DNA of 64,000 nt from an uncultured Candidatus Saccharibacteria bacterium (GTDB lineage: Bacteria; Patescibacteriota; Minisyncoccia; Phycocordibacterales; UBA1006): positions 81,499 through 145,498 of the forward strand of contig CAZDPR010000001.1 in NCBI GenBank assembly GCA_964507625.1. Reading direction: 5' to 3'. The position numbers and the translations under genes were made by a program. The notes under the pieces were generated by a model, which worked only from the letters and a program-made list of their open reading frames with translations, was not told the origin of the DNA and made no database searches. Below are positions 1 to 54,055 of the stretch, one piece after another (position 1 is the stretch's first letter; each line of letters starts with the position of its first letter).

Positions 1-111
1 AGCAGATTCAAAATATTTGTCAAGTGTTTTCCTATATTGTCTAAAATCTCCAACAACGGTGCTCAATTTATTGAGGACTTTCGATAAAAATTAAATATTC
101 ATTTTGTCAAA

Positions 112-154
112 AATAAGTCTATTATGTTTAAAATAATAGACTTATTTATTTTTA
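112..154 (+). terminator. Intrinsic terminator-like hairpin (AATAAGTCTATTAT...ATAATAGACTTATT) followed by a T-run; it ends the transcript coming in from upstream of the window
   Basis: 14-bp inverted repeat followed by TATTTTT, read directly. Confidence 0.4.
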
Positions 155-223
155 AAAAATACTTATAAAATAATCTTATTTTTGTATTTATTCAAAATAC
201 TTGTCAATTTTTGTTGGAAATAC

Positions 224-252
224 TTGACAAATATTTTGAATTATGCTAACCT
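224..252 (+). promoter_or_regulatory. Extended -10 sigma70-like promoter P1: TTGACA (224-229), 17-nt spacer, TGcTAACCT (244-252). An upstream half-repeat AATACTTGTCAA lies at 196-207
   Basis: Motif read directly. Near-identical architecture recurs at 6598-6626 (TTGACA-17-TGaTAACAT). Confidence 0.5.
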
Positions 253-254
253 AT

Positions 255-660
255 GGGTACGAGCATGGGACAGATCATGTTCGGAGATCGCGAGAGAAAA
301 CAAAACTATCTGTCTCATTCAGGTAGTCACAATCTTCAAGTTAAGTTCCCCCGATATCAGCTCAGCGTACTGATATCAGGAATACTTAACTTGAACTCGA
401 TTTTGTTCTTTTGAGAGCCGGTTTATCGTTACGGCATGTAGGGTAAGTGGATCATAAAGGCTCCTCGAGGCCTCCGATCTGCGAATAGCTTGGGAATTAT
501 CACCCCAAGAGTTACAGGGTATGGTTCTGTGCGCACAGGATCATAAAGAACTCTGACCGACCACAACGATGAGGGGGCAAACGAGCTGATTACTCGTCTC
601 GTCTTGGTAACAAGACAAAATTGCTCCAATCGGAGAAGCGCCAATCGCGCGCTTCTCCTT
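255..660 (+). ncRNA. Candidate structured non-coding RNA (family unassigned), ~50% GC against ~33% background. Several nested hairpins, e.g. 343-391 GTTAAGTTCCCCCGATATCAG...CTGATATCAGGAATACTTAAC, 520-532 CTGTGCGCACAG, 601-616 GTCTTGGTAACAAGAC
   Basis: Sharp local GC jump in an AT-rich genome. Sits immediately downstream of promoter P1 and has no credible ORF. Flows directly into the first conserved cassette module. Confidence 0.35.
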
Positions 661-717
661 TCTATCAGGATCTCGAACTCTTTCGAGGTTCTGTAGAAAG
701 GTTGTTCTTTGAAAAAG
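632..717 (+). repeat. Cassette junction module copy 1: GC hairpin GGAGAAGCGCC...GGCGCTTCTCC plus T-run, conserved hairpin ATCTCGAA-CTCT-TTCGAGGT (670-689), CUGUAGAAA, GTTCTTTGAAAAAG (704-717)
   Basis: Recurrent module aligned by eye across 8 copies. Arms of the conserved hairpin show compensatory substitutions and position-conserved U-G wobbles on the + strand. Confidence 0.7.
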
Positions 718-768
718 TTTGGTTTGGTTATTTTAGTTTCTTTATGGAGATTAAAATAACCAAACCAG
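718..768 (+). repeat. Long perfect hairpin (17-bp stem TGGTTTGGTTATTTTAG/TTAAAATAACCAAACCA) directly 3' of GTTCTTTGAAAAAG. Homologous, with covariation, to the hairpin at 5683-5737
   Basis: Perfect inverted repeat. Compensatory changes relative to 5683-5737 (G->A paired with C->T; TTTTAG/TTAAAA -> TTTCAG/TTGAAA). Confidence 0.6.
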
Positions 769-982
769 AGACCTGATTGCTTTTTGCACAGGCCTCTCTC
801 TTCTCTTTTTTCTCATGCGTGCTTGGACAAACCCTAAGACTAGTCGTAGAACCTGAGGTCATATAAAACTTCATGATATCAGTGACTAGTATAGGAAGCC
901 GTAACTAGATTGATAAAATCTAGTGAAAACTAAATATATTTACTTGTTGAGTGAATACATTTAGATGTTTGTCCAAATCTTG

Positions 983-1095
983 CCAAGAATGAATTGTTAG
1001 TGTTTGTTAAACACGTATAATAACAGTTCATTCTTGGAAACAAGATTTTTTTATCAGGGTCTCAAATTTATTTGAGGTTCTGTAGAAAAATTCAT
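983..1095 (+). repeat. Cassette junction module copy 2 (divergent): hairpin CCAAGAATGAA...TTCATTCTTGG plus T-run, then conserved hairpin variant GTCTCAAAT-TTA-TTTGAGGT (1059-1077) and CUGUAGAAAAA
   Basis: The CGAA/TTCG to CAAA/TTTG double substitution preserves pairing, which is strong evidence for selection on RNA structure. Confidence 0.6.
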
Positions 1096-1119
1096 TTTCA
1101 AAAATTAAATAAACATAAA

Positions 1120-1398
1120 ATGAAAAACTTTAAAGGATTAACCGGTAGTGATGCAAAATTAGAGTTTGCATTGTGTGTATTACATGCAATACCTAATCAG
1201 AACACTGAGGAAATTACTCAGTTATGTCAAGAGGCTCGTGAAGCGGAGATTATTCCAGATCTTGATTTGGAAAAATTGAAAGCTGAAGCACTTGAGATTC
1301 TCCCAACTGCACAATTTTTTTACCCTACTGGTAAAGAAGCAGAAATGAGAAGGTTTCAAGATTTCCGAGACCGTATCCTTGCAATGGCAATGGAATAA
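1120..1398 (+). CDS. Hypothetical small cassette protein (93 aa from MKNFKGLTG...). The tracked ORF start at 1072 lies inside the conserved hairpin, so I moved the start to the ATG at 1120
   Basis: ORF track 1072..1398, internal ATG chosen. No recognisable domain. Confidence 0.4.
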   Translation: MKNFKGLTGSDAKLEFALCVLHAIPNQNTEEITQLCQEAREAEIIPDLDLEKLKAEALEILPTAQFFYPTGKEAEMRRFQDFRDRILAMAME

Positions 1399-1429
1399 AG
1401 GGTAGGTGATTCTAAAAAATCTACCCCTC

Positions 1430-1591
1430 ATACTCCGTTACCCCGTAAGGTAACTCCTCGCATTGGTGGCTAACAAAAATGTGGAGTATCTGTGGCACCT
1501 CTGATTACATCAGAAAAGCCACACCTGTCCTGGAATGTACTATTCCAGCTGATGAGTCCAAAAGGACGAAACAGGGTGTTCTTTGAAAAAG
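1430..1591 (+). repeat. Cassette junction module copy 3 (hammerhead variant): conserved stem UACUCC[GUUACC-CCGUAA-GGUAAC]...GGAGUA, hammerhead ribozyme, then GTTCTTTGAAAAAG (1578-1591)
   Basis: Block shared with 5540-5682. Same downstream motif and hairpin as the other modules. Confidence 0.7.
1520..1579 (+). ncRNA. Hammerhead ribozyme, type III topology. Stem III 5' strand CACCUGU, cleavage triplet GUC (1527-1529, predicted cut after 1529), stem I CUGGAAU-GUACU-AUUCCAG, core CUGAUGAG, stem II UCC-AAAA-GGA, then CGAAAC plus stem III 3' strand AGGGUG
   Basis: All invariant hammerhead core nucleotides (CUGAUGA, GAAA, GUC) are present in the correct order, with three helices of proper polarity. 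The second copy at 5610-5669 differs only in the stem I loop. Confidence 0.8.
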
Positions 1592-1593
1592 AG

Positions 1594-1647
1594 ATTGGTT
1601 TGATGAATTCAGTTTTTTCTGAAAATTGAATTCATCAAACCAAACGA
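1594..1647 (+). repeat. Long perfect hairpin (18-bp stem TTGGTTTGATGAATTCAG/TTGAATTCATCAAACCAA) immediately 5' of the next cassette ORF
   Basis: Perfect inverted repeat read directly. Same position as the hairpins at 718 and 5683. Confidence 0.55.
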
Positions 1648-1649
1648 TC

Positions 1650-1907
1650 ATGAAATATTTAATATTTGCAGCCTTGTCAACATTACTGTCTATCGGCGCT
1701 CTGATGACTTTTTCTCAAACAGATGAAAAATTCTCTCTGATATTTGGGGTTATATTTGGCGCAATGTCGATCAGTTGGTTGGTTAACTTTTATTACGACC
1801 GTAAAATAAATCGTCGTAATAAAAAAAGAATTAGCTTTGCTAATTCTTTTTTTATTGTGCTTGTTGCCAAAAATTTTCAAAAATCGTTACAAAAAATTCA
1901 TATATAG
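1650..1907 (+). CDS. Hypothetical small membrane protein (two predicted TM helices). Start moved to the MKYLIF ATG at 1650
   Basis: ORF track 1626..1907, hydrophobic stretches. The 3' end overlaps the convergent TrmB gene. Confidence 0.3.
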   Translation: MKYLIFAALSTLLSIGALMTFSQTDEKFSLIFGVIFGAMSISWLVNFYYDRKINRRNKKRISFANSFFIVLVAKNFQKSLQKIHI

Positions 1908-2628
1908 ATTTATTGGTAATAATAACAGATCTCAAACCTTTATCCCAAATGGTTATAGAAACATGATTTTTCCAAATTGAAATATTGAGGTTCGGGTTAA
2001 ATAGTGACTGGGGTAATGTACGGATCTCGCGTAACTTTGTTTTAGATCTCTTCTTCTCCTCCGCTGCTAATGGAGAATCTGACATAATCATACGAGCAGT
2101 AATATTCTTTTTTCTACGGAGATCGCCATAAGTCTTTAAACGTTCTCGAGCAACCGTAAATGTTTCTGTTGCCCCCGAAAAACGTAACACCTCGCCATAT
2201 TTTTCTTGTTCCAACGATCTAAAAAAAGTTTCTACAAAACCATCTTCACCTTCGAGATGTTCGACGTCAATTTGCTCGGAATTACCTCGTAAAGCAAAAA
2301 AGGCGCGCAGTTCAGGGAGAATGAGGTCAATCTCTAATTTCTTTTTAGTAACCAGGGCTTCCTCGTGTTCTATAAAATTTTTTAATTTTTCTGGCTTTTC
2401 AACATAAACCATTCGACGTTTACCAATAGTAGTTGTTCCCAGAACCCCTCGCTCAACGAGTTGCTCAATAGCAAGATGGATGGTAGACCGGGGAAGACCG
2501 GTTCCTTTTGCAATATCGGCAATATTTGAGAAACCATTTTTAAACAAGTAGAAAATACTTTGTTGTTCAGCAAAGTCAAAACCGATTTCTTTAAGAGAAT
2601 CTTTTAATTTTTTTGGTATTTCAATCAT
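1852..2628 (-). CDS. TrmB-family winged-HTH transcriptional regulator
   Basis: N-terminal HTH (FYLFKNGFSNIADIAKGTGLPRSTIHLAIEQLVERGVL) typical of the TrmB family. It is the only minus-strand gene inside the cassette array. Confidence 0.55.
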   Translation of the reverse strand: MIEIPKKLKDSLKEIGFDFAEQQSIFYLFKNGFSNIADIAKGTGLPRSTIHLAIEQLVERGVLGTTTIGKRRMVYVEKPEKLKNFIEHEEALVTKKKLEIDLILPELRAFFALRGNSEQIDVEHLEGEDGFVETFFRSLEQEKYGEVLRFSGATETFTVARERLKTYGDLRRKKNITARMIMSDSPLAAEEKKRSKTKLREIRTLPQSLFNPNLNISIWKNHVSITIWDKGLRSVIITNKSIYEFFVTIFENFWQQAQ

Positions 2629-2672
2629 GCTGTAAGTATAGCATTTTTATTTTAAAATGACAAATATTTTTG

Positions 2673-2704
2673 ACATTTATTAAAAATACATATAAATATC
2701 AATA
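2673..2704 (+). promoter_or_regulatory. Promoter-like TTGACA-17-TAAATA in the divergent AT-rich intergenic region between the TrmB gene and ORF 2750
   Basis: Motif read directly. Confidence 0.3.
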
Positions 2705-2749
2705 AAATAAATACTTTTTTAAAAAAGTATAACAAAAATCGTTGTTAAA

Positions 2750-2998
2750 ATGCTTGACTTATTAAAACTATTATGCTACAATGTTTTTAAGAAGATGAGG
2801 AATAACTATCCGCGAGATCCTGATTCTGTTGCTCTTTGTGAACTATTCGAAAGGAATATCCCCAGCATCATTTATAAAACGGAGATGGTGTTTGGAATAT
2901 TCCTTTCGAGGAGAAAGATTGGAAAGGCAGGTCCCTCTGCCGGTTCGGGAATTCCATGGACAGTTTTGAGCGTGCCACCGTTCAGACTCTTCGAGTAA
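2750..2998 (+). CDS. Hypothetical protein (82 aa)
   Basis: ORF track only. Confidence 0.25.
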   Translation: MLDLLKLLCYNVFKKMRNNYPRDPDSVALCELFERNIPSIIYKTEMVFGIFLSRRKIGKAGPSAGSGIPWTVLSVPPFRLFE

Positions 2999-3153
2999 TT
3001 ATTTGTTTTTACGAATAAGAACTTGATGTTGGTTTTTCAAACAAAATGGGCGGGTGAAGCAGTTCTGGTGGACGGAATCCTAGTATGGAAATTGGTAAAG
3101 GATTACGGTTAAGAAATCGTTCTCTTTTATTAAAGACCATAGTAAAGCTTCGG

Positions 3154-3244
3154 GAGAAGTGGGTGTTTTTAACAACCACTTCTCCTTTCTATCAGGATCT
3201 TAAATTTGTTTGAGGTTCTGTAGAAATATTTGTTCTTTGAAAAG
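3154..3244 (+). repeat. Cassette junction module copy 4: GGAGAAGTGG...CCACTTCTCC hairpin plus T-run, conserved hairpin ATCTTAAAT-TTG-TTTGAGGT (two U-G wobbles), CUGUAGAAA, GTTCTTTGAAAAG
   Basis: Alignment with the other copies. The arm substitutions here are tolerated only as RNA wobbles, which fixes the functional strand as +. Confidence 0.7.
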
Positions 3245-3317
3245 AGATGAAGTGAATATCTTGGATATTACCTTTTTAAACGTTTGTGTAGTATCCAGTA
3301 TATTCACTTCATCTTTA
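3241..3317 (+). repeat. Long hairpin (AGATGAAGTGAATAT...ATATTCACTTCATCT) 5' of the small ORF at 3330
   Basis: 15-bp perfect stem read directly. Confidence 0.5.
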
Positions 3318-3329
3318 AACCCATAAACT

Positions 3330-3488
3330 ATGTCCCAAAGGGAAGCACTTAAAGTAGCAGATATGTTGTTGGCCAAAAAAGGATTTAATCCTGACGGCAC
3401 CCCAAAAGGTAAGGGGCGGAAAAAGTCTCAGTCGTTCTTCGAAAGGAGGATGATCAAGACTGTCCCTATGGGTGGAAAGGTACGATAA
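3330..3488 (+). CDS. Small basic ORF (52 aa, MSQREALKVADMLLAKKGF...). Not in the ORF track because it is under 60 aa
   Basis: Correct cassette position just after the hairpin. Translated by hand. Confidence 0.2.
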   Translation: MSQREALKVADMLLAKKGFNPDGTPKGKGRKKSQSFFERRMIKTVPMGGKVR

Positions 3489-3695
3489 ACCTTTCCACCT
3501 GCATCCCTTGCAGGTTTTGACAGAGTCAAAGGGAAAATTCTAATCATCAGATCGATGTCGTTGTTGTCTATCCGTTTTACGAAAGTAAATGGTGAGCCAC
3601 AGGGAGCAGAACCTGATGAAATCATAACCAGTACGGTTGTGATCTTTATCCAAATCATGAAGCAGTTCGTGGTTTGGTAGAGAAACAGTCAAAAA

Positions 3696-3747
3696 ATGAG
3701 TTTGGTGAAATGAGGTAATTCTAGAAGCCTCACTTCACCAAACTCAC
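3696..3747 (+). repeat. Long perfect hairpin (ATGAGTTTGGTGAAATGAGG...CCTCACTTCACCAAACTCAC) ending 6 nt before the start codon at 3753
   Basis: 20-bp stem read directly. Confidence 0.5.
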
Positions 3748-3752
3748 TCACT

Positions 3753-4055
3753 ATGACTAATATGTTCGTTTCATTATCAGGATGGCAAACAGGTCGCGAA
3801 ATCGTGGAACACGATGGAAAACTGTATTTTGAGGTGGCAGAACAAGGCCACTGCAGTATCTGTCAGTCGAGGATTGATCACGTACGTGCCGTAGTTGCAC
3901 GCAAGAAATTGCAGGTAACTTATGGTCATTTACTAGATCGATTTCCGCGCGATGCACGCACCCTGTGGGTAGGATTAGAGAAACCGAAGTCAGAGATGAA
4001 TAGCGGGGAGGTGAAAGCCTTTTTCCGCGAAAACTTAGAACTTCCGATACTCTAA
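3753..4055 (+). CDS. Hypothetical cassette protein (100 aa). A C-x2-C motif suggests a possible small zinc-binding fold
   Basis: ORF track. Followed immediately by the conserved 3' element at 4070. Confidence 0.4.
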   Translation: MTNMFVSLSGWQTGREIVEHDGKLYFEVAEQGHCSICQSRIDHVRAVVARKKLQVTYGHLLDRFPRDARTLWVGLEKPKSEMNSGEVKAFFRENLELPIL

Positions 4056-4069
4056 CTTGTCGTATGTCT

Positions 4070-4260
4070 CCGGACCGGTTTCACACTACCCAATAGTACG
4101 GGTAGCCGGTTGGCAACAGAAAGTAAGTAATGCCTGCTGTGAAGCATGTATATACTGAAAAAGTGAAGCGGAGAAGTGAATGCTAAAACATTCACTTCTC
4201 ATTTTTATCAGGATCTCGAACTCATTCGAGGTTCTGTAGAAATATTTGTTCTTTGAAAAG
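4070..4260 (+). repeat. Cassette junction module copy 5, full length: 3' element CCGGACCGG..CTACCC-AATAGTAC-GGGTAG-CCGGTTGGCAACAG, terminator hairpin GAGAAGTGAATGC...TCACTTCTC plus T5, conserved hairpin ATCTCGAA-CTCA-TTCGAGGT, CUGUAGAAA, GTTCTTTGAAAAG
   Basis: Over 90% identical to 4684-4874. The 5' 55 nt also match 5404-5459. Confidence 0.75.
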
Positions 4261-4261
4261 A

Positions 4262-4312
4262 GTTTAATTGGTTACATAAGTTTTTTATGAAGATTTATGT
4301 AACCAATTAAAC
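4262..4312 (+). repeat. Long perfect hairpin (GTTTAATTGGTTACATAA...TTATGTAACCAATTAAAC) ending 10 nt before the ATG at 4323
   Basis: 18-bp stem read directly. Confidence 0.5.
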
Positions 4313-4322
4313 AAATAACACC

Positions 4323-4676
4323 ATGTCAGCTTTAAACATACATACACTGATTATTCTGAGAACACAATTTTCTAACCGATTTGAAGGTCCTAAGCCTGCG
4401 TCCCTTACCTATAGTGCAGTTTATTATGGAAATGATAGGGCATATGTTGAATATTACAATGAGAATCTTGTTGATGAAGTGGCTACACAGTGTGATTTTT
4501 GGGAGTGCGTAAACAGATATTGCGAAGAGTTTTTTATTAATGTTAAGGTTCTGGATGAGGTAGATGAAAAAGAAAAAATTGAAGAACATTTAACAAAATT
4601 AATAACTGACAAGATCGTGAAATTAGCCGGTAGACCACTCGGATCATCATTTCGAAATATTAATAAAGATTCTTAA
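4323..4676 (+). CDS. Hypothetical cassette protein (117 aa)
   Basis: ORF track. Flanked by modules on both sides. Confidence 0.4.
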   Translation: MSALNIHTLIILRTQFSNRFEGPKPASLTYSAVYYGNDRAYVEYYNENLVDEVATQCDFWECVNRYCEEFFINVKVLDEVDEKEKIEEHLTKLITDKIVKLAGRPLGSSFRNINKDS

Positions 4677-4683
4677 TACAATT

Positions 4684-4874
4684 CCGGACCGGTCTCACAC
4701 TACCCAATAGCAAGGGTAGCCGGTTGGCAACAGAAAGTAAGTAATACCTGCTGCGAAGCATGTATATACTGAAAAAGTGAAGCGGAGAAGTGAATGCTAA
4801 AGCACTCACTTCTCATTTTTATCAGGATCTCGAACTCATTCGAGGTTCTGTAGAAAGACTTGTTCCTTAAAAAG
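4684..4874 (+). repeat. Cassette junction module copy 6 (full length, near-identical to copy 5)
   Basis: Direct comparison with 4070-4260. Confidence 0.75.
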
Positions 4875-4963
4875 AGAACGAAAGCAGCTAGCAACTTATT
4901 AGATCCGGTTGATAAAACCCCACGATAAGGCGTGGAAAACTGGCATTCAGCTGGTCCGGAATT

Positions 4964-5395
4964 TTGCTTATGGAGAATATTATTCTTAATAAGACGGAGG
5001 ATTCTTCTTTCATCACTATCTCTAAAGACTTCATACCTCGATTGACTTACTTTGTTGTCAAAACATGGGACAGTTATTGGGGTGGTTATCATGAGGTCGG
5101 AGTGAAAACTCTTACCTTAATGGATAAGGATTGTGGTGTTACTCTAAAAGATCTCAAAAAGGCTATTTCGAGAAGAGGATTAGGTGCAAAGATTGTAAAA
5201 GAAAGTCATTCACATAATGGCGATGAACAATCTTTTTACTGGTCTCTTAAGGAGTGGTTCCCTGTCTATAAGATAGGTAATGAGTATTATGTCTATGCTT
5301 TTGACAAAGCTCAGTTTGGTGGTGTTGGAATTACTTTTCAACATGTAAACCATCGGGTAGCGGAAGAGCTGGATATTTTAGAGCAATTTTACTAG
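4964..5395 (+). CDS. Hypothetical cassette protein (143 aa)
   Basis: ORF track. Confidence 0.4.
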   Translation: MLMENIILNKTEDSSFITISKDFIPRLTYFVVKTWDSYWGGYHEVGVKTLTLMDKDCGVTLKDLKKAISRRGLGAKIVKESHSHNGDEQSFYWSLKEWFPVYKIGNEYYVYAFDKAQFGGVGITFQHVNHRVAEELDILEQFY

Positions 5396-5403
5396 AAGAT
5401 CCT

Positions 5404-5682
5404 CCGGACCGGTTTCACACTACCCAATAGCACGGGTAGCCGGTTGGCAACAGAAAGTACCTTGCTTGCGAGGGAAAAAGTGAAAAGGGAATCAGGTTGT
5501 GCCCTCAATAAGGAAAGACAACCACCATATATTGCTCCGTTACCCCGTAAGGTAACTCCTCGCATTGGTGACTAACAAAAATGTGGAGTAAGCGGACGTT
5601 GAACAACATCCGCACCTGTCCTGGAATGGAGTATTCCAGCTGATGAGTCCAAAAGGACGAAACAGGGTGTTCTTTGAAAAAG
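5404..5682 (+). repeat. Cassette junction module copy 7 (hammerhead variant): 3' element CCGGACCGG...GGCAACAG, then divergent linker, conserved UGCUCC[GUUACC-CCGUAA-GGUAAC]...GGAGUA block, hammerhead, GTTCTTTGAAAAAG (5669-5682)
   Basis: Shares its 5' part with copies 5 and 6 and its 3' part with copy 3. Confidence 0.7.
5610..5669 (+). ncRNA. Hammerhead ribozyme, type III, second copy. GUC at 5618-5620 (predicted cut after 5620), stem I CUGGAAU-GGAGU-AUUCCAG, CUGAUGAG, UCC-AAAA-GGA, CGAAAC-AGGGUG
   Basis: Identical core to 1520-1579. Only the stem I loop (GGAGU versus GUACU) and the distal stem III differ. Confidence 0.8.
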
Positions 5683-5737
5683 TTTGATTTGGTTATTTCA
5701 GTTTCTGTATGGAAATTGAAATAACCAAATCAAATGA
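5683..5737 (+). repeat. Long perfect hairpin (TTTGATTTGGTTATTTCAG...TTGAAATAACCAAATCAAA). A covarying homolog of the 718-768 hairpin
   Basis: 19-bp stem. Paired compensatory substitutions relative to copy 1. Confidence 0.6.
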
Positions 5738-6031
5738 ATATGAGTATTAAGCGCGCACGAGATCGTATTTGCCGAAAGGCATAGAGATTATCAAAAATCA
5801 CCCTTACACTCTTAAGGTTTTGTCATTGACATGAGTATTGGGTTTTGTCCCCATCTTACCTAAAAGATGGAGAGCCATGAAAAAGCAGATTTTCATATGA
5901 GTAAACATATTAAAAAATCCACCAAATTGTTGTGTACAGGCGTTTGGTTGGCAGGAGTTATTTTTTTATTTATTCCACGCGGAGCCAGAGTCTCTGTCGG
6001 GTTTATTTAAAAAAAAAGATGTTCTGTCATT

Positions 6032-6120
6032 GAGAAGTGTTTGCCTGGGTGAACACTTCTCTTTTCTATCAGGATCTCGAACCACTTCGAGGTTCTGCAG
6101 AAATAGTTGTTCTTTAAATC
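6032..6120 (+). repeat. Cassette junction module copy 8: GAGAAGTGTT...AACACTTCTC hairpin plus T-run, conserved hairpin ATCTCGAA-CCAC-TTCGAGGT, CUGCAGAAA, GTTCTTTAAATC
   Basis: Alignment with the other copies. Confidence 0.65.
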
Positions 6121-6597
6121 ACAAAAAACTTTAAAATGGAAACTAAAAAACCAAGGGATAGACTTCGAACTATCTAATGAGTTCTTACGCAGAACTCACC
6201 CTTTTAGTCGCTTATCAGTTCGATATTCCTGAAACGATATATGGAAGTGGCAACATCATGATGCTAGCTTAATTGTTAATTAGGTTAGAAGATTGGTGAG
6301 TTTTCGCCGGTTTAAGTGCCGGGATAGTCCCTCTCACTATAAATGTCTAGATCCGTCAAGGGTTGAGGACATAATGAGAGATGCCAAACTGATAGGGGTT
6401 ACGGAAATTAACCTCGCTCTATAAGTTTCCATGTACTGGGTTGTACAGTAAGCGAAATGAGTAAATTTTCCGTTTTTGTTCACTAAACCTTTTATTTGAT
6501 AGATTGGAAAGTTGTTAACTTTCCAATCATCATAAAAGTTTTATTAAATTCTCTAAAGAAGGCCTAATATAGGTTTTTTATTGTATTTATTTTGTAC

Positions 6598-6626
6598 TTG
6601 ACAAAAAAATTAAAATATGATAACAT
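6598..6626 (+). promoter_or_regulatory. Extended -10 promoter P2: TTGACA (6598-6603), 17-nt spacer, TGaTAACAT (6618-6626). A paralog of P1, including the shared TACTTGACAAA context
   Basis: Direct motif comparison with 221-252. Confidence 0.5.
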
Positions 6627-6633
6627 GTATTTA

Positions 6634-6755
6634 AGTCAGTGGTGGAATTTGTTATCAAAATGACAAACTATTCCTGTTAGGAGAAAAGTCCACACAAATC
6701 TCCCTGTTAGGGGGTAAAAACAAAATCTAAAACCACCCTTCCGGGTGGTTTTTTA
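6634..6755 (+). promoter_or_regulatory. ~120-nt leader transcript from P2 ending in an intrinsic terminator (ACCACCC-UUCC-GGGUGGU plus U6 at 6732-6755), 50 nt upstream of the 799-aa gene. Candidate attenuator, riboswitch-like leader or small RNA. Contains the repeated CCUGUUAGG(A/G)G motifs
   Basis: Promoter, leader, terminator and gene in sequence. Upstream GUGGUGG (6642-6648) could alternatively pair with the terminator 5' arm. Confidence 0.4.
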
Positions 6756-6806
6756 CTGATATTATTTTTTATAGGAATCCGTTTCTTATGATATAATAAA
6801 GTTATT

Positions 6807-9206
6807 ATGAAAGAATCGTTTCTACCTGCAAAAAAAACAAATAATAATGAAATATTAATTACTCTAGAATATATTCCTGGAATGCAACCACAAGAAATAA
6901 TATTGGAAAAGTTTACCCCTGAGGAGCAAAAGGTAATAGAAGATCGCAAGGAAATATTAAAAACAATCGTAGGGGCTGTTTCAGGTAATTACTCTATTCC
7001 CGTTGTATTAGGGTTGCCTGAAAGGGTGGGAGATTCAGGTTGGCGTCATGTAAAGTTAAAAGATGGACGTGAATTCATACAACTGAATGCTCATGATATT
7101 TTAACCAAAGAAATGGATTTTTTACGGTTTGTAACAGCTCATGAGGCTGGACATCAAGCAATCACTAAATGGGATTTTATCTTTGACGATCCGGAACTTA
7201 CAGAACTATATACAAATACAACAGGATTTGCATATTTATTAAATTGCACAGAAGATCCTCGGGATAATAATTATGTTGCAGAAGTTTATGAGCCGTTTAC
7301 AGAAGTAATGAAATTAGCATATCGTTTACAAGAAGAATACACAGAAGATATGTTAATTGAAATAAAAAAGAAAATGGGGTTTATTCCAAGACATATATTA
7401 GCAGGTATGGAATATATTCAGCAATGGTACCGTGAATCTCAAACATTACCTTTTGCGATTAATTCTGATTTACCAGGTGATGTGTATGAAGTAGTTCAAA
7501 AAACATTACCATACGCAAAAGATTCATGGTGGAGATTTCCATCCAAAGAAGAGGTTGTTCGTAATCCAGACATTATTCATAAATATGCTCGCATATATTT
7601 TGATATTAATTTAAAAAAAATTTGGCCAGAATTTGCAAAATTAGTAGAAAAAGATAAAAAAGATCAACAGGTACAACAAATGTTGAAAAAGATGAGTCGC
7701 GAACAAAAAGATCAAGAAATTGAGTTGCCTCCTTGGCTTCAAGAGATTTTAAACGAAGAGGATCAAGAGTTTTTAAAAAAAATTTTGCGTGAATATTTGA
7801 AAATGCTCAAAAAGGCAGAACAGGCAGATAAAGAAGAATTGTTGAGTGATCCTGAAAAAAAACAAGAAGATTCAGATTCAGATTTAGAAGAAGGAGAAGA
7901 GGGGGTGGAGACAGGCCCAAACAACAACCCTTCTCCAGAAGAGTCTGATACAGAGAATACAGAGAATACAGGGAATACAGAGAATACAGAGAATACAGAG
8001 AATACAGAGAATACAGAGAATACAGAGAATACAGAGAATACAAAGAATACAGAGAATACAGAGAATACAGATTTACAGAAGAAAGATATTCCGTTTGATT
8101 TAGATCAATTGCCAGATGATTTAAAAGATAAATTAAGTGAAGGTATAGATAAGAATATGGACCCAGGAGAACGTGAAGAGTTAGAAAAAGAGTCAGAAAA
8201 AGCAATAAAAGAGTTAGACGAAGAGATTATTAAAAAAATACAAGACCAAACGAAAAACGATACAAAGAATTATAATGAATCAAAAAAAAGTAATAATGAA
8301 GAGGTTAAAAAAGAAGTTGAACTAAAAGATAAAAGAAAAGAAATTGAAAAAAAACTAAAAACATTTGAAGAAGGACTTGATGAATTGTTCAAATTGAAAG
8401 AAGATTTCAAAAAACAAACTGAAGTGGTTCCTGATAATAAATACCAAAAAGCGCGTCAAGAAAACTTTGAAATAATAAAAAAACTAGAAAATGATTTACG
8501 TATGATTTTTAAGAGTAGACGAGAAGGGTTGACTCAAAAAAATCTTCCCTCTGGTTCACGTATTAACATGTTTAAAAGAATTCAAGAAAAAGCACGTGGG
8601 ATTAGTGTAGTGGAATCACGAGCGTATGAACGAAAAATTTTACCTCAAGAAAAAGATTATGCAATTACGTTATTAGTAGATCTTTCCGGTTCAATGAGCG
8701 ATAAAATAGAAGAAACATTTGCCGGAGTTGTTGCAGTTACTGAATCATTGCATCGACTAGGAATCAAAACAGAAATTTTAGGGTTTAACCATCTCATGTT
8801 TGAATTTAAGAAATTTAATGAAAAAATGACAAGTAAAATACAAGATAAGATGGGTGAAATGATTAATGCAGTAAGTCAACCGGGTGCAAATGGTAATAAT
8901 GATGGTTATGCAGTACTAATTGCATCAGAAAGATTAAAAAAGACTAATGAAAAAGAAAAGATTTTAATTGCTTTTTCAGATGGTCAACCCAATCCTTCTG
9001 GTGAGTATAGTGGTGATAAATATGAGCTAACTAATGTGATTAGAAAAACTAAAGCAGATAACACTATAAAATTAGTAGGAGTTGGTTTAGGAGAAGGAAC
9101 TGATCATGTGTCGCATTATTATCCAAAAAGTGCTGCAAATATTCCCATAAATGATTTATCGAAACAATTAGCAAGAGTGATACGTGAAGCAATTGAAGAA
9201 AATTAA
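6807..9206 (+). CDS. Three-part protein: N-terminal HExxH zinc metallopeptidase-like domain (HEAGH at 7140-7154), central acidic coiled-coil linker with an (ENT)n repeat, and C-terminal von Willebrand factor A domain with the MIDAS motif DLSGS (8679-8693) and the AFSDGQP motif
   Basis: Motifs read from the translation. This architecture (putative metallopeptidase plus vWA, as in DUF2201-type proteins) is the usual partner of MoxR AAA+ ATPases. Confidence 0.7.
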   Translation: MKESFLPAKKTNNNEILITLEYIPGMQPQEIILEKFTPEEQKVIEDRKEILKTIVGAVSGNYSIPVVLGLPERVGDSGWRHVKLKDGREFIQLNAHDILTKEMDFLRFVTAHEAGHQAITKWDFIFDDPELTELYTNTTGFAYLLNCTEDPRDNNYVAEVYEPFTEVMKLAYRLQEEYTEDMLIEIKKKMGFIPRHILAGMEYIQQWYRESQTLPFAINSDLPGDVYEVVQKTLPYAKDSWWRFPSKEEVVRNPDIIHKYARIYFDINLKKIWPEFAKLVEKDKKDQQVQQMLKKMSREQKDQEIELPPWLQEILNEEDQEFLKKILREYLKMLKKAEQADKEELLSDPEKKQEDSDSDLEEGEEGVETGPNNNPSPEESDTENTENTGNTENTENTENTENTENTENTENTKNTENTENTDLQKKDIPFDLDQLPDDLKDKLSEGIDKNMDPGEREELEKESEKAIKELDEEIIKKIQDQTKNDTKNYNESKKSNNEEVKKEVELKDKRKEIEKKLKTFEEGLDELFKLKEDFKKQTEVVPDNKYQKARQENFEIIKKLENDLRMIFKSRREGLTQKNLPSGSRINMFKRIQEKARGISVVESRAYERKILPQEKDYAITLLVDLSGSMSDKIEETFAGVVAVTESLHRLGIKTEILGFNHLMFEFKKFNEKMTSKIQDKMGEMINAVSQPGANGNNDGYAVLIASERLKKTNEKEKILIAFSDGQPNPSGEYSGDKYELTNVIRKTKADNTIKLVGVGLGEGTDHVSHYYPKSAANIPINDLSKQLARVIREAIEEN
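7950..8071 (+). repeat. In-frame 9-bp tandem repeat (GAGAATACA) of about 13.5 units encoding (E-N-T)n. One unit is GGGAATACA and one is AAGAATACA
   Basis: Read directly. The minus-strand ORF 7807..8205 is an artefact of this repeat. Confidence 0.85.
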
Positions 9207-13335: not shown

Positions 13336-13364
13336 TTGACAATATTTTAAAAAGTTGCTATATT
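13336..13364 (+). promoter_or_regulatory. Extended -10 promoter TTGACA-17-TGcTATATT upstream of the secreted-protein gene
   Basis: Motif read directly. Confidence 0.45.
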
Positions 13365-25066: not shown

Positions 25067-25846
25067 ATGAAGTATCATCAGAAAAAAATTCTTATTGGAA
25101 ATTGGAAAATGAATCCAGTTGATGGAAAAACTGCGAATCAATTGTTTAAAAAAATTCAAACTACAGCTCTCAAAAATAAAAAACATGTAGAAACGGTAAT
25201 TTGTCCTCCATCAGTATATTTACAATCTTTGTATGAACTGATTACTGATCGTGCATGTGTATTAGGTGCACAGGATTGTTTTTATGAAACAAGCGGTTCG
25301 TTTACGGGTGAAATTTCTCCTGAAATGATTTTTAATGCAAAAGCGCGTTATGTTATCGTAGGGCATTCAGAGCGTCGTGCTTTAGGTGAAACAAATGAAA
25401 TAATTCACAAAAAAGTGGCAAAAATTTTACAGTACCCATTATCAGTAATTATCTGCGTCGGTGAAACAGAACGATTTGAAAATGGTGCACATATTAAGGA
25501 AATAAAAAAACAAATTACATCAGCATTAGTAGGTGTACCAGAAAACTTTCTCGATCGAGTGATTATTGCCTATGAGCCAGTATGGGCAATTGGCGTAAAT
25601 GCAAAACGAAGTGCAACTCCAGAAGAATGTTTTGAAATGATTACTAGTATTCGTGGAATAGTCAGTGATTTATATCAGAGCACTGCAGTAGGTCATGGAA
25701 TCACAGTGGTGTATGGAGGGTCAACTAATACTGAAAATACAAAAGCATTTCTCACAACGGGTGCAGCCGATGGTTTATTAATTGGTCGATCGAGTTTGGA
25801 TCCACAAGTTTTTTCAGATATGATCCGTATTGCAGCACAATCATAA
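25067..25846 (+). CDS. tpiA: Triosephosphate isomerase
   Basis: VIVGHSERR and AYEPVWAIG motifs. Confidence 0.85.
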   Translation: MKYHQKKILIGNWKMNPVDGKTANQLFKKIQTTALKNKKHVETVICPPSVYLQSLYELITDRACVLGAQDCFYETSGSFTGEISPEMIFNAKARYVIVGHSERRALGETNEIIHKKVAKILQYPLSVIICVGETERFENGAHIKEIKKQITSALVGVPENFLDRVIIAYEPVWAIGVNAKRSATPEECFEMITSIRGIVSDLYQSTAVGHGITVVYGGSTNTENTKAFLTTGAADGLLIGRSSLDPQVFSDMIRIAAQS

Positions 25847-26984: not shown

Positions 26985-27392
26985 CTATAATGCGTTTTTT
27001 ATTTTTGCAATATATTCATTTTTTTCTTCAGTATTTTCATAGGGTTCGTGATGTCGCATTTCTGGTGGAACATCATCATGAGATGGGGTGATGTATCGGG
27101 GAATGAGGTGAATATGGAAATGAGGAACATCTTTGCCGATAACGCCAACCTGTACGTAATCACATTGAATACCTGATCGTATAGCAGTCATGAGTTTTTT
27201 TGCAACAATAAACATATGACCCACTGTTTCATCGGGTGCATCAATCATCCATGGGTGGGGTTGTTTGGAAACGAGGAGAGTATGCCCTTTGGTGACTGGG
27301 GAAATGTCTAAAAATGCTATACAAGTAGCATCTTCATACACAATGTCCGCAGGAATTTCTCGATCGATAATTTTTTCAAAAATGGTTTTCAT
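26985..27392 (-). CDS. HIT-family (histidine triad) nucleotide hydrolase
   Basis: HFHIHLIP histidine triad. Confidence 0.8.
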   Translation of the reverse strand: MKTIFEKIIDREIPADIVYEDATCIAFLDISPVTKGHTLLVSKQPHPWMIDAPDETVGHMFIVAKKLMTAIRSGIQCDYVQVGVIGKDVPHFHIHLIPRYITPSHDDVPPEMRHHEPYENTEEKNEYIAKIKNAL

Positions 27393-45449: not shown

Positions 45450-45511
45450 CTCAGCGGTAGAGCAAACGACTGTTAATCGTAAGGTCGCAGGTTCGAATCC
45501 TGCCGGGGGAG
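45440..45511 (+). tRNA. tRNA-Asn (anticodon GUU), 72 nt, CCA not encoded
   Basis: Cloverleaf folded by hand: acceptor 7 bp, D stem GCTC/GAGC, anticodon loop CUGUUAA, T stem GCAGG/CCTGC, T loop TTCGAAT. Confidence 0.85.
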
Positions 45512-53284: not shown

Positions 53285-54055
53285 TTGACAGCAAGACCAT
53301 ACTATGCTACCATATGGGTGTACCCAATTTTCGGGTTTTTTATTATCAAGGTTATCTTGGTGATAAGCAAAATATTCAAGACAAGGAGTTTGACGGAGCA
53401 CATACCGTCGATTATGCCCAAAAATATATTTGATATTTATTTCGCATCCAAAGCAATTACTAGTAATATTCATGTATTTATTCACTCTTTCTGGAGATCT
53501 ACAACCGCTTTCACTCTTGTGATCGCGCTTGTGATCACCACGCTTTGGGCGCATACTTCTCAAGCAGAAGCTCCATTTCTTGGAACCGATGAAGTAGTCG
53601 CAGAAAAAATCGTTGACGGTTTAACGACTACAGAACGGGCCCAGAAAATTGACGCCTTCTATATCGCAAAAGGAGATTTACCCCTTGCTGGTTACGGTCT
53701 TGCCATGGTGCAGGCTGCTGACGAGTATGGAGTCGACTGGCGATTAGTTGCTGCTATTGGATTCATTGAATCTACTGGTGGTAAATTTGCATGTAAAGGT
53801 GCAAGTTATAGTGCGTTCGGTTGGGGGTCATGTAAAATTAACTTTTCAAGTTATGAGGAATCAATTGATGTGATTACGAAAAACTTGGGAGGACATAACC
53901 CAAACACTGCGCGGTATTATAAAGACAAGACGCTTGGTCAAATTATTGATACATACAACCCTCCATATATTCGTCCAAACTACAAAAAATTAGTAACGAA
54001 AACAATGGATCAGATTGCAACGATTGATGCACCAACGATTCTTGCTAAAAAATAA
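53285..54055 (+). CDS. Secreted lysozyme-like (SLT/glucosaminidase-type) domain protein. The true start is probably internal
   Basis: FIESTGG Glu-Ser motif after a TM/signal segment. Confidence 0.35.
   Translation: MTARPYYATIWVYPIFGFFIIKVILVISKIFKTRSLTEHIPSIMPKNIFDIYFASKAITSNIHVFIHSFWRSTTAFTLVIALVITTLWAHTSQAEAPFLGTDEVVAEKIVDGLTTTERAQKIDAFYIAKGDLPLAGYGLAMVQAADEYGVDWRLVAAIGFIESTGGKFACKGASYSAFGWGSCKINFSSYEESIDVITKNLGGHNPNTARYYKDKTLGQIIDTYNPPYIRPNYKKLVTKTMDQIATIDAPTILAKK

Follow-up and report, generated by a model that had tools for sequence, protein, structure and literature searches.

A predicted small RNA gene with its own promoter and terminator, directly upstream of a vWA–MoxR operon in a Patescibacteria genome

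Described systems and how the locus compares

Attenuators and riboswitches, type III toxin–antitoxin systems, titrating RNAs of the CsrB/RsmZ type and independent small RNA (sRNA) genes are the described systems with which the interval at positions 6596–6806 of the 64,000-nucleotide (nt) stretch analysed here (the window) can best be compared. The DNA comes from an uncultured Candidatus Saccharibacteria bacterium, and the interval holds a predicted promoter, a short leader and an intrinsic terminator, directly 5´ of an operon encoding a vWA protein of 799 amino acids (aa) and a MoxR-type ATPase. The original prediction described an attenuator or riboswitch gating a potentially toxic conflict system, and offered an independent sRNA as a fallback; it is the fallback that the evidence favours. 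The interval probably comprises two transcription units, a stand-alone sRNA gene and an operon served by a promoter of its own. The sRNA gene appears to be independent, lineage-restricted and without a known family, and would form the last unit of an upstream island of non-coding RNA.

Attenuators and riboswitches (trp/pyr/bgl-type, T-box and metabolite-sensing) resemble the locus in their linear order and in a possible pairing with the 5´ arm of the terminator, but the window has a predicted promoter past the terminator, it shows no aptamer match or leader peptide, and its candidate antiterminator is short. Type III toxin–antitoxin systems (ToxIN, CptIN and TenpIN) consist of a repeat RNA, a terminator and then the gene of a protein that is neutralised by the RNA. 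The window likewise has a repeat-bearing RNA, a terminator and a protein gene on one strand; however, its repeats are two and imperfect, the downstream gene has its own promoter and encodes an HExxH/vWA protein rather than an endoribonuclease, and the defence library gave no match. The CsrB/RsmZ-type RNAs share with the locus the presence of near-identical repeated small hairpins in a short terminated RNA, although the hairpins number two here and carry CCUGUUAGG with a GUU loop instead of GGA in the loop.

Independent bacterial sRNA genes are matched in the own promoter, the length of the RNA (about 120 nt), the terminator with its U tail, the lack of a conserved open reading frame (ORF) and the combination of conserved single-stranded blocks with structured hairpins. 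The sRNA of the window differs from those described in that it matches no family in Rfam and has been found in two genomes only.

The predicted sRNA and the promoter of the operon

The sRNA promoter lies at 6598–6626 on the forward strand, where the original prediction had placed it. It consists of a −35 box TTGACA (6598–6603), a 17-nt spacer, the TG of an extended −10 (6618–6619) and a −10 box TAACAT (6621–6626), and reaches 10/12 with the extended −10 in a consensus scan. Transcription from this near-consensus sigma-70-type promoter would start near A6633, seven nucleotides past the −10 box, and RNA polymerase would stop at the intrinsic terminator at 6729–6754 (+). This terminator, also as originally described, comprises a 10-bp stem (6729–6738/6743–6752), of which seven pairs are ACCACCC/GGGUGGU, a UUCC loop and six U (6749–6754), with an energy of −14.9 kcal/mol. 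A predicted promoter and terminator thus bracket a short non-coding transcript, with both ends placed from the −10 box and the U-run: an RNA of about 122 nt (6633 to about 6754, +), somewhat longer than the 100 nt first estimated. The predicted RNA folds at −37.4 kcal/mol (z = −3.4 against shuffles), and no second copy of it was found in the window or in any fetched locus.

From 5´ to 3´, the RNA would present a G-rich segment, a variable hairpin, two YCCU-GUU-AGGR hairpins, an A-rich linker and the terminator hairpin with its U tail. The G-rich segment UCAGUGGUGG (6636–6645, +) is identical in the one relative known to carry the same unit (L001). RNAalifold, run on both sequences, pairs it with UCCACAC at 6689–6695; the terminator's 5´ arm is a possible alternative partner. 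The variable hairpin P1 (6648–6667, +) has 8 bp in the window and 13 bp in L001. Hairpin 2, UCCU-GUU-AGGA (6671–6683, +), holds the first CCUGUUAGG, and its sequence ATTCCTGTTAGG is identical in L001. It is followed by the conserved linker AGUCCACACAAA (6687–6698, +; 11/12 positions the same in L001), the proposed partner of the G-rich segment, and by hairpin 3, CUCCCU-GUU-AGGGGG (6700–6714, +), with the second CCUGUUAGG. The A-rich linker AAAAACAAAAUC (6716–6727, +) is again identical in L001.

The repeated leader motif that had been reported is real: the 64-kb window contains just two copies of CCTGTTAGG, at 6673–6681 and 6703–6711, one in each of the two near-identical hairpins that flank the conserved linker. 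The duplication suggests a platform with two sites for a protein. The RNA would act most likely in trans, either through this platform or by base pairing, for which its conserved single-stranded segments would be available.

The known classes of structured RNA were searched without success. No Rfam family rose above noise at 6596–6806, using gathering thresholds for the whole window and E ≤ 10 for positions 1–7000. The search for riboswitch families that the original prediction proposed gave as its best overlapping matches Phe_leader (22.7 against a threshold of 55 bits, E = 2.7), Gut-1 (22.9/50) and csRNA (26.6/57), all below threshold and with E > 0.5. ARAGORN found no tRNA or tmRNA in the interval, and a tRNA-like fold was also rejected on the grounds that the P1 loop measures 4 nt and its stem 8–13 bp. 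There is no conserved ORF in the sRNA, since the sole ATG ORF (MTNYSC) is missing from L001, and a coding function was therefore discarded.

The 799-aa gene starts at ATG 6807, 52 nt past the U-run of the terminator, in agreement with the roughly 50 nt noted before. Between the two lies a proximal promoter (6768–6797, +), composed of TTTATA, an 18-nt spacer, TG (6789–6790) and TATAAT (6792–6797), which scores 10/12 with the TG in the consensus scan and is conserved in L001. Its extended −10 TGATATAAT (6789–6797) ends 9 nt before the ATG. The operon (the HExxH/vWA gene, a gene for a protein of about 133–148 aa and the MoxR-type ATPase gene) would be transcribed from this promoter, leaderless or nearly so.

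This arrangement is common in the window. Essentially no Shine-Dalgarno sites were found in the 40 nt upstream of about 50 ORFs inspected, and of 40 genes that start with ATG, 14 have an extended −10 of the form TGNTANNNT ending 6–11 nt before this codon, where the density of the motif would predict 0.4. Together, these two features imply that leaderless or near-leaderless mRNAs would be the rule in this Patescibacteria genome. Starts of the leaderless type can be seen, for example, at 25067, 26985–27392 (−), 28052, 31767, 39565, 45567, 48946, 52182, 56148 and 59578.

The position of the proximal promoter bears directly on the attenuator that had been proposed, in which the 6598 promoter would serve the operon and the terminator would act as the gate, with an antiterminator formed by GUGGUGG (6639–6645) on binding of a protein, an RNA or a ligand. 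The order of promoter, leader, terminator and gene on one strand, kept in L001, is that of an attenuator, and the duplicated hairpins could serve as the binding site of a regulator. The pairing postulated for the antiterminator is also possible in both genomes: the minimum-energy fold obtained with the 3´ arm blocked joins the G-rich segment to the terminator's 5´ arm, in a duplex of 5–7 bp with −9.6 kcal/mol in the window and −8.7 in L001, a comparison of two sequences.

However, this duplex is weaker than the local terminator of about −15 kcal/mol, its two strands would enclose a loop of about 90 nt, and the G-rich segment has in CCACAC a nearer conserved partner that would compete for it. 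As to a sensor element, neither a riboswitch, T-box or leader family in Rfam nor a conserved leader peptide was found, and five more distant vWA–MoxR operons lack the leader. A conserved predicted promoter at the standard leaderless spacing stands between the terminator and the ATG, which argues against dependence of the gene on the 6598 promoter. An attenuator is therefore rather unlikely. With a stand-alone sRNA gene, the main effect of the terminator would be to shield the operon against the strong RNA promoter and the upstream RNA island.

The sRNA promoter was also described as a paralogue of another at 221–252. The likeness holds, with 80% identity over 30 nt between 221–252 and 6595–6626, but the two do not form a special pair. 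A third promoter at 2754–2782 aligns equally well. The window contains four copies of the pattern TTGAC-N13-TATGNTA, where 0.35 would be expected, and seven of the broader TTGAC-N(13-17)-TGNTANNNT, where 1.4 would be expected, with further sites of this seven-member pattern preceding ordinary genes at 13336 and 27437. The likeness thus seems to reflect the strong-promoter consensus of the genome, a full −35 plus an extended −10, rather than a specific pair of paralogues. The promoters at 224 and 2754, of the same type as that at 6598, drive at least two other non-coding units in the upstream island, and the RNA units of L001 and of a more distant relative (L002) are headed by the same architecture. 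Since the same promoter type drives other RNA units of the island, the sRNA fits as one more RNA gene of this island. At 53285–53345, a fourth promoter, of the TTGAC-N13-TATGCTA type, stands immediately before ATGGGTGT and a short hairpin that carries a T-run (ACCCAATTTTCGGGTTTTTT); this may represent either a terminated transcript of very small length or a hairpin with a regulatory role on the 5´ side.

If the 6598 promoter were unused, the terminator could be the 3´ end of a long upstream transcript containing the micro-ORF at 6137–6178 and an RNA of about 380 nt. The 6060–6830 interval is indeed 82% identical to L001 as a whole, and the upstream RNA has just a weak terminator-like hairpin and T-run at about 6553–6575. 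Against this, the promoter has a perfect TTGACA, a 17-nt spacer and an extended −10, it matches a pattern enriched in the window, and it is the best-conserved block of the interval (29/32 positions, 91%, in L001). A silent promoter at this site is highly improbable.

Conservation of the sRNA and the case for its independence

Protein searches brought up just two close relatives of the operon. L001 is syntenic, with 74–79% identity for the vWA protein and 87% for the ATPase, and carries the same RNA unit in the same order directly 5´ of the operon, whereas L002–L004 show 51–53% protein identity. The 799-aa protein has seven real homologues in the indexed collection; those of the ATPase are many, two of them above 53% identity. 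With so few protein homologues, the comparative set could not be enlarged.

The conservation between the window and L001 is distributed in blocks. Besides the promoter, the 5´ segment with UCAGUGGUGG is conserved at 17/19 positions (89%) and the stretch from the −10 box to the ATG at 17/20 (85%), while the spacer past the terminator falls to 63%. P1 is only 47% identical and differs by 10 nt in length, yet a hairpin is found in both (−4.2 kcal/mol in the window and −10.6 in L001), with three pairs changed on both sides. The core with both CCUGUUAGG hairpins and linkers is 78% identical, and hairpin 3 becomes UUCCU-GUU-AGGAA in L001, its fourth pair changing from C-G to U-A. The terminator is 81% identical and keeps its pairing, extended to an 11-bp stem by one inserted U-A pair (−15.1 kcal/mol). 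Compensatory changes are thus seen in P1, hairpin 3 and the terminator, in a comparison of two sequences only.

Identity at four-fold degenerate sites between the two genomes is 0.70–0.72 in the vWA and ATPase genes and 0.49–0.52 in those of RNase Y and TrmB. The 78% of the sRNA core is well above the second pair of values. The overall level of conservation is not dramatic; it is the block pattern, the kept pairing and the conserved promoter that argue for a functional RNA gene, in one relative and in a sample too small for statistics.

Beyond L001, the sRNA was not found. The pattern CCTGTTAGG-N(1-12)-AGTCCA-N(4-18)-CTGTTAGG gave no hit in species genomes (596 Gb) or JGI metagenomes, and CCTGTTAGG-N(1-12)-AGTCCANACAAA gave none in metagenomes or viral contigs. 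In L002 (51% protein identity), an unrelated RNA of about 350 nt is followed by a terminator and then by the operon's own TGGTATAAT promoter; local alignments of the sRNA with the two RNAs upstream of this operon were not above shuffled controls (p = 0.1–0.5). In four more distant operons (L005/L006, L008, L009 and L010) there is no such RNA, and in L008 the gene stands 30 nt past IleRS. Given the unrelated RNA of L002 and the lack of any such RNA in L005, L008, L009 and L010, the operon does not appear to need the sRNA as a leader. In L005 (15132–17573), the vWA-MoxR operon is followed by the signature of a diversity-generating retroelement, with a bAvd accessory protein, an RVT_1 reverse transcriptase and a 342-aa ORF.

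The adjacency of sRNA and operon, kept in L001, invites the idea of a dedicated partnership, in which the RNA would be bound or remodelled by the chaperone-like pair of the HExxH/vWA-MoxR machine, or would serve as a decoy, in a single RNA–protein system. The decoy derives from the bases CUGUUAG displayed by the two hairpins, which share 6/7 with the anticodon loop CUGUUAA of tRNA-Asn (45472–45478), a resemblance seen post hoc and given no weight. Such a partnership is improbable. Much the same holds for its version modelled on type III toxin–antitoxin systems, in which two repeat units of about 30 nt would bind or titrate the machinery.

Two imperfect direct repeats (CCUGUUAGGRG ... ACAAAUC), a terminator and a protein gene do reproduce the order of ToxIN and CptIN. 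However, the repeats number two only, and the downstream proteins are not endoribonucleases of the ToxN/AbiQ/CptN/TenpN type, Pfam recognizing nothing but CobT_C/VWA in the 799-aa protein. PADLOC returned nothing beyond a weak mad8 match for the ATPase, the 799-aa gene has its own promoter, and homologous operons are common in Patescibacteria, adjoining housekeeping genes and without this RNA. An RNA of the toxin–antitoxin kind is thus improbable.

The repeats could also be read in DNA rather than in RNA. Each repeated TCCTGTTAGGA is an inverted repeat TCCT-N3-AGGA, a possible site for a transcription factor, such as the TrmB-like regulator (1852–2628), that would control neighbouring promoters. 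Two other Patescibacteria contigs show comparable arrays directly 5´ of a promoter: three TTCCTGTTAGGAA at 21-bp spacing next to a TTGACA box (L074, 3180–3260) and two at 22-bp spacing (L078, 4100–4140, −). These may represent a group-wide operator, or a coincidence. Against operators in the window, the spacing of 30 bp (27 bp in L001) is not helically phased, no more copies lie near any other promoter in the window, and the sites belong to the transcribed RNA, at distances of 97 and 127 bp on the 5´ side of the predicted operon start, from which the terminator separates them. Moreover, the flanking changes between the window and L001 preserve RNA pairing, and a looser scan of species genomes for two hairpins gave 83 loci, about the number expected by chance and mostly Poribacteria repeats, among which L074 and L078 alone stood out. 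Operators at this site are very improbable.

Several observations weigh against an independent sRNA gene. The sRNA is co-oriented with the operon and directly adjoins it in both the window and L001. Its core identity of 78% is not far above that of the four-fold sites of the adjoining vWA and ATPase genes, and with one homologue (L001) in all collections searched, its covariation amounts to two sequences. No conserved complements of its three single-stranded conserved blocks were found in the window or in L001, including the A-rich linker (6716–6727), for which no conserved target was seen. Conditional read-through at the terminator is possible but not indicated, by way of the pairing of the 5´ G-rich segment with the terminator 5´ arm in both genomes, and a read-through transcript could be translated, as genes within operons are also translated without Shine-Dalgarno sites. 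Finally, both promoters and the terminator are predictions from sequence; we infer that both promoters fire, that the terminator is efficient and that the RNA has the role proposed for it.

The upstream RNA island and the proteins of the operon

The 6.5 kb upstream of the sRNA contain one solid protein gene, that of the TrmB-like regulator at 1852–2628 (−). The remainder is densely filled with structured RNAs driven by promoters, with repeated modules and with small ORFs, and includes two hammerhead ribozymes of type III. The hammerheads (1522–1577 and 5613–5668, both +) have complete cores (GUC, CUGAUGA and GAAA) and score 41.2 bits, just below the threshold of 48.5, which explains why the default Rfam scan missed them; their counterpart in L001 (2424–2479) reaches 49.5 bits. 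Each one has a small ORF and a conserved structured element on its 5´ side, and GUUCUUUGAAAAAG, a long hairpin and the next small ORF on its 3´ side.

A two-hairpin module is repeated at 644–727, 1033–1116, 3171–3254, 4187–4270, 4801–4884 and 6048–6131, and at about 1728–1822 in L001. It is formed by a variable GGAGAAG...CUUCUCC hairpin and then a conserved UUUCUAUCAGGAUCUCGAA-NNNN-UUCGAGGUUCUGUAGAAA hairpin of about 18 bp, with folds at z −3.5 to −6.8 and compensatory changes at five pairs across seven copies. The module had no Rfam match at E ≤ 10 and was not found in viral contigs. It takes the position of the hammerheads, with GUUCUUUGAAAAG, then a hairpin and then a small ORF on its 3´ side. 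The RNA may therefore be processed at this module, for example by an enzyme of the RNase III type or by self-cleavage of an undescribed kind.

Two further structured elements lie directly 3´ of small ORFs, neither of them with an Rfam match. The first, CCGGACCGGUUUCACACUACCC...GGGUAGCCGGUUGGCAACAGAAAGUA, has three copies (4068–4125, 4682–4739 and 5402–5459); the second, CUCCGUUACCCCGUAAGGUAAC...GUGGAGUA, has two (1433–1488 and 5535–5590), always about 35 nt 5´ of a hammerhead. Two apparently non-coding transcripts of about 380–400 nt were also delineated, at about 253–630 (promoter 224–252) and about 2790–3150 (promoter 2754–2782). Their GC content is 0.41–0.45 against about 0.30 in the flanks, each ends in a two-hairpin module, and no Rfam family matches them.

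The only part of the island recognisable at 51% protein identity is a conserved micro-ORF (6137–6178; 2506–2547 in L001, about 8252–8287 in L002, and also present in L003 and L004), with one per locus, always upstream of the vWA-MoxR operon. Its product reads M(E/Q)TKKPRDR(L/I)RTI*, and MKRPRDRLRTI* in L002. Synonymous changes (AGG/AGA and ATC/ATT) and one conservative Leu/Ile replacement are seen between the window and L001. Behind the micro-ORF, a conserved RNA of about 380 nt (6180–6560) lies within the interval shared with L001.

The operon was originally labelled vWA-metallopeptidase/MoxR. The label is reasonable, with Pfam matches for the vWA and MoxR assignments, although the peptidase part is weakly supported. 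The 799-aa protein (6807–9206, +) is composed of an N-terminal HExxH domain, an acidic repeat linker and a C-terminal CobT-like vWA domain, with a match of the C-terminus to CobT_C/VWA (CobT_C 5.3e-11) and weak NCBIfam CobT matches. H112, E113 and H116 of its HEAGH motif are invariant in eight homologues. The best solved-structure matches of the AF2 model of the N-terminal domain (pLDDT 83) are minigluzincin peptidases, with a probability of 0.85 and a weak E = 0.24.

The second ORF of the operon is listed as 148 aa, and as about 133 aa in the gene calls of identical and related contigs; it has no family match in Pfam, NCBIfam or PADLOC. The third one, of 621 aa, matches AAA_5 of the MoxR type, and its closest named homologues come from Woesebacteria, Zambryskibacteria, Magasanikbacteria and the "Patescibacteria group".

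In the vWA-MoxR ternary conflict systems (Kaur et al. 2020, PMC7159879), a MoxR ATPase and a vWA protein are combined with a VMAP, iSTAND, FtsH or beta-propeller component, and effector domains follow the vWA domain on its C-terminal side. The window operon shares with them the MoxR-type AAA_5 ATPase and the vWA protein; however, its vWA domain is itself C-terminal and CobT-like, and its third protein, of 148 aa, is without a family match, which sets it apart from these systems. PADLOC defence models did not match the 799-aa or the 148-aa protein, and gave the 621-aa ATPase only the weak mad8 match; a defence function of the operon was rejected for this lack of support. The homologous operons are widespread in Patescibacteria beside housekeeping genes. 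A toxic conflict system in need of tight gating finds no support here.

The acidic linker of the 799-aa protein carries a TENTEN... repeat of the hexanucleotide type (about 8040–8130), which may vary in length or defeat assembly. A Logan contig of identical sequence (L011) is interrupted within the gene, and the records contain none with precisely the same product. The housekeeping genes of the window include those for RNase Y, trigger factor, NusA, MetRS, RecJ and pyruvate kinase.

The order of promoter, leader, terminator and gene is not sufficient to call an attenuator, since genomes with leaderless mRNAs can hide a promoter within 20 nt of the start codon. To our knowledge, regulatory RNAs with an experimental description are scarce in the Patescibacteria (Candidate Phyla Radiation), and few sRNAs have been described in the group. 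On its own, the sRNA would be one more unclassified bacterial sRNA, and the 6.5-kb upstream island with its hammerheads is the more unusual feature of the window. Nevertheless, with its clean boundaries, its length of about 122 nt and its duplicated hairpin motif, the predicted RNA would be easy to look for in metatranscriptomes.

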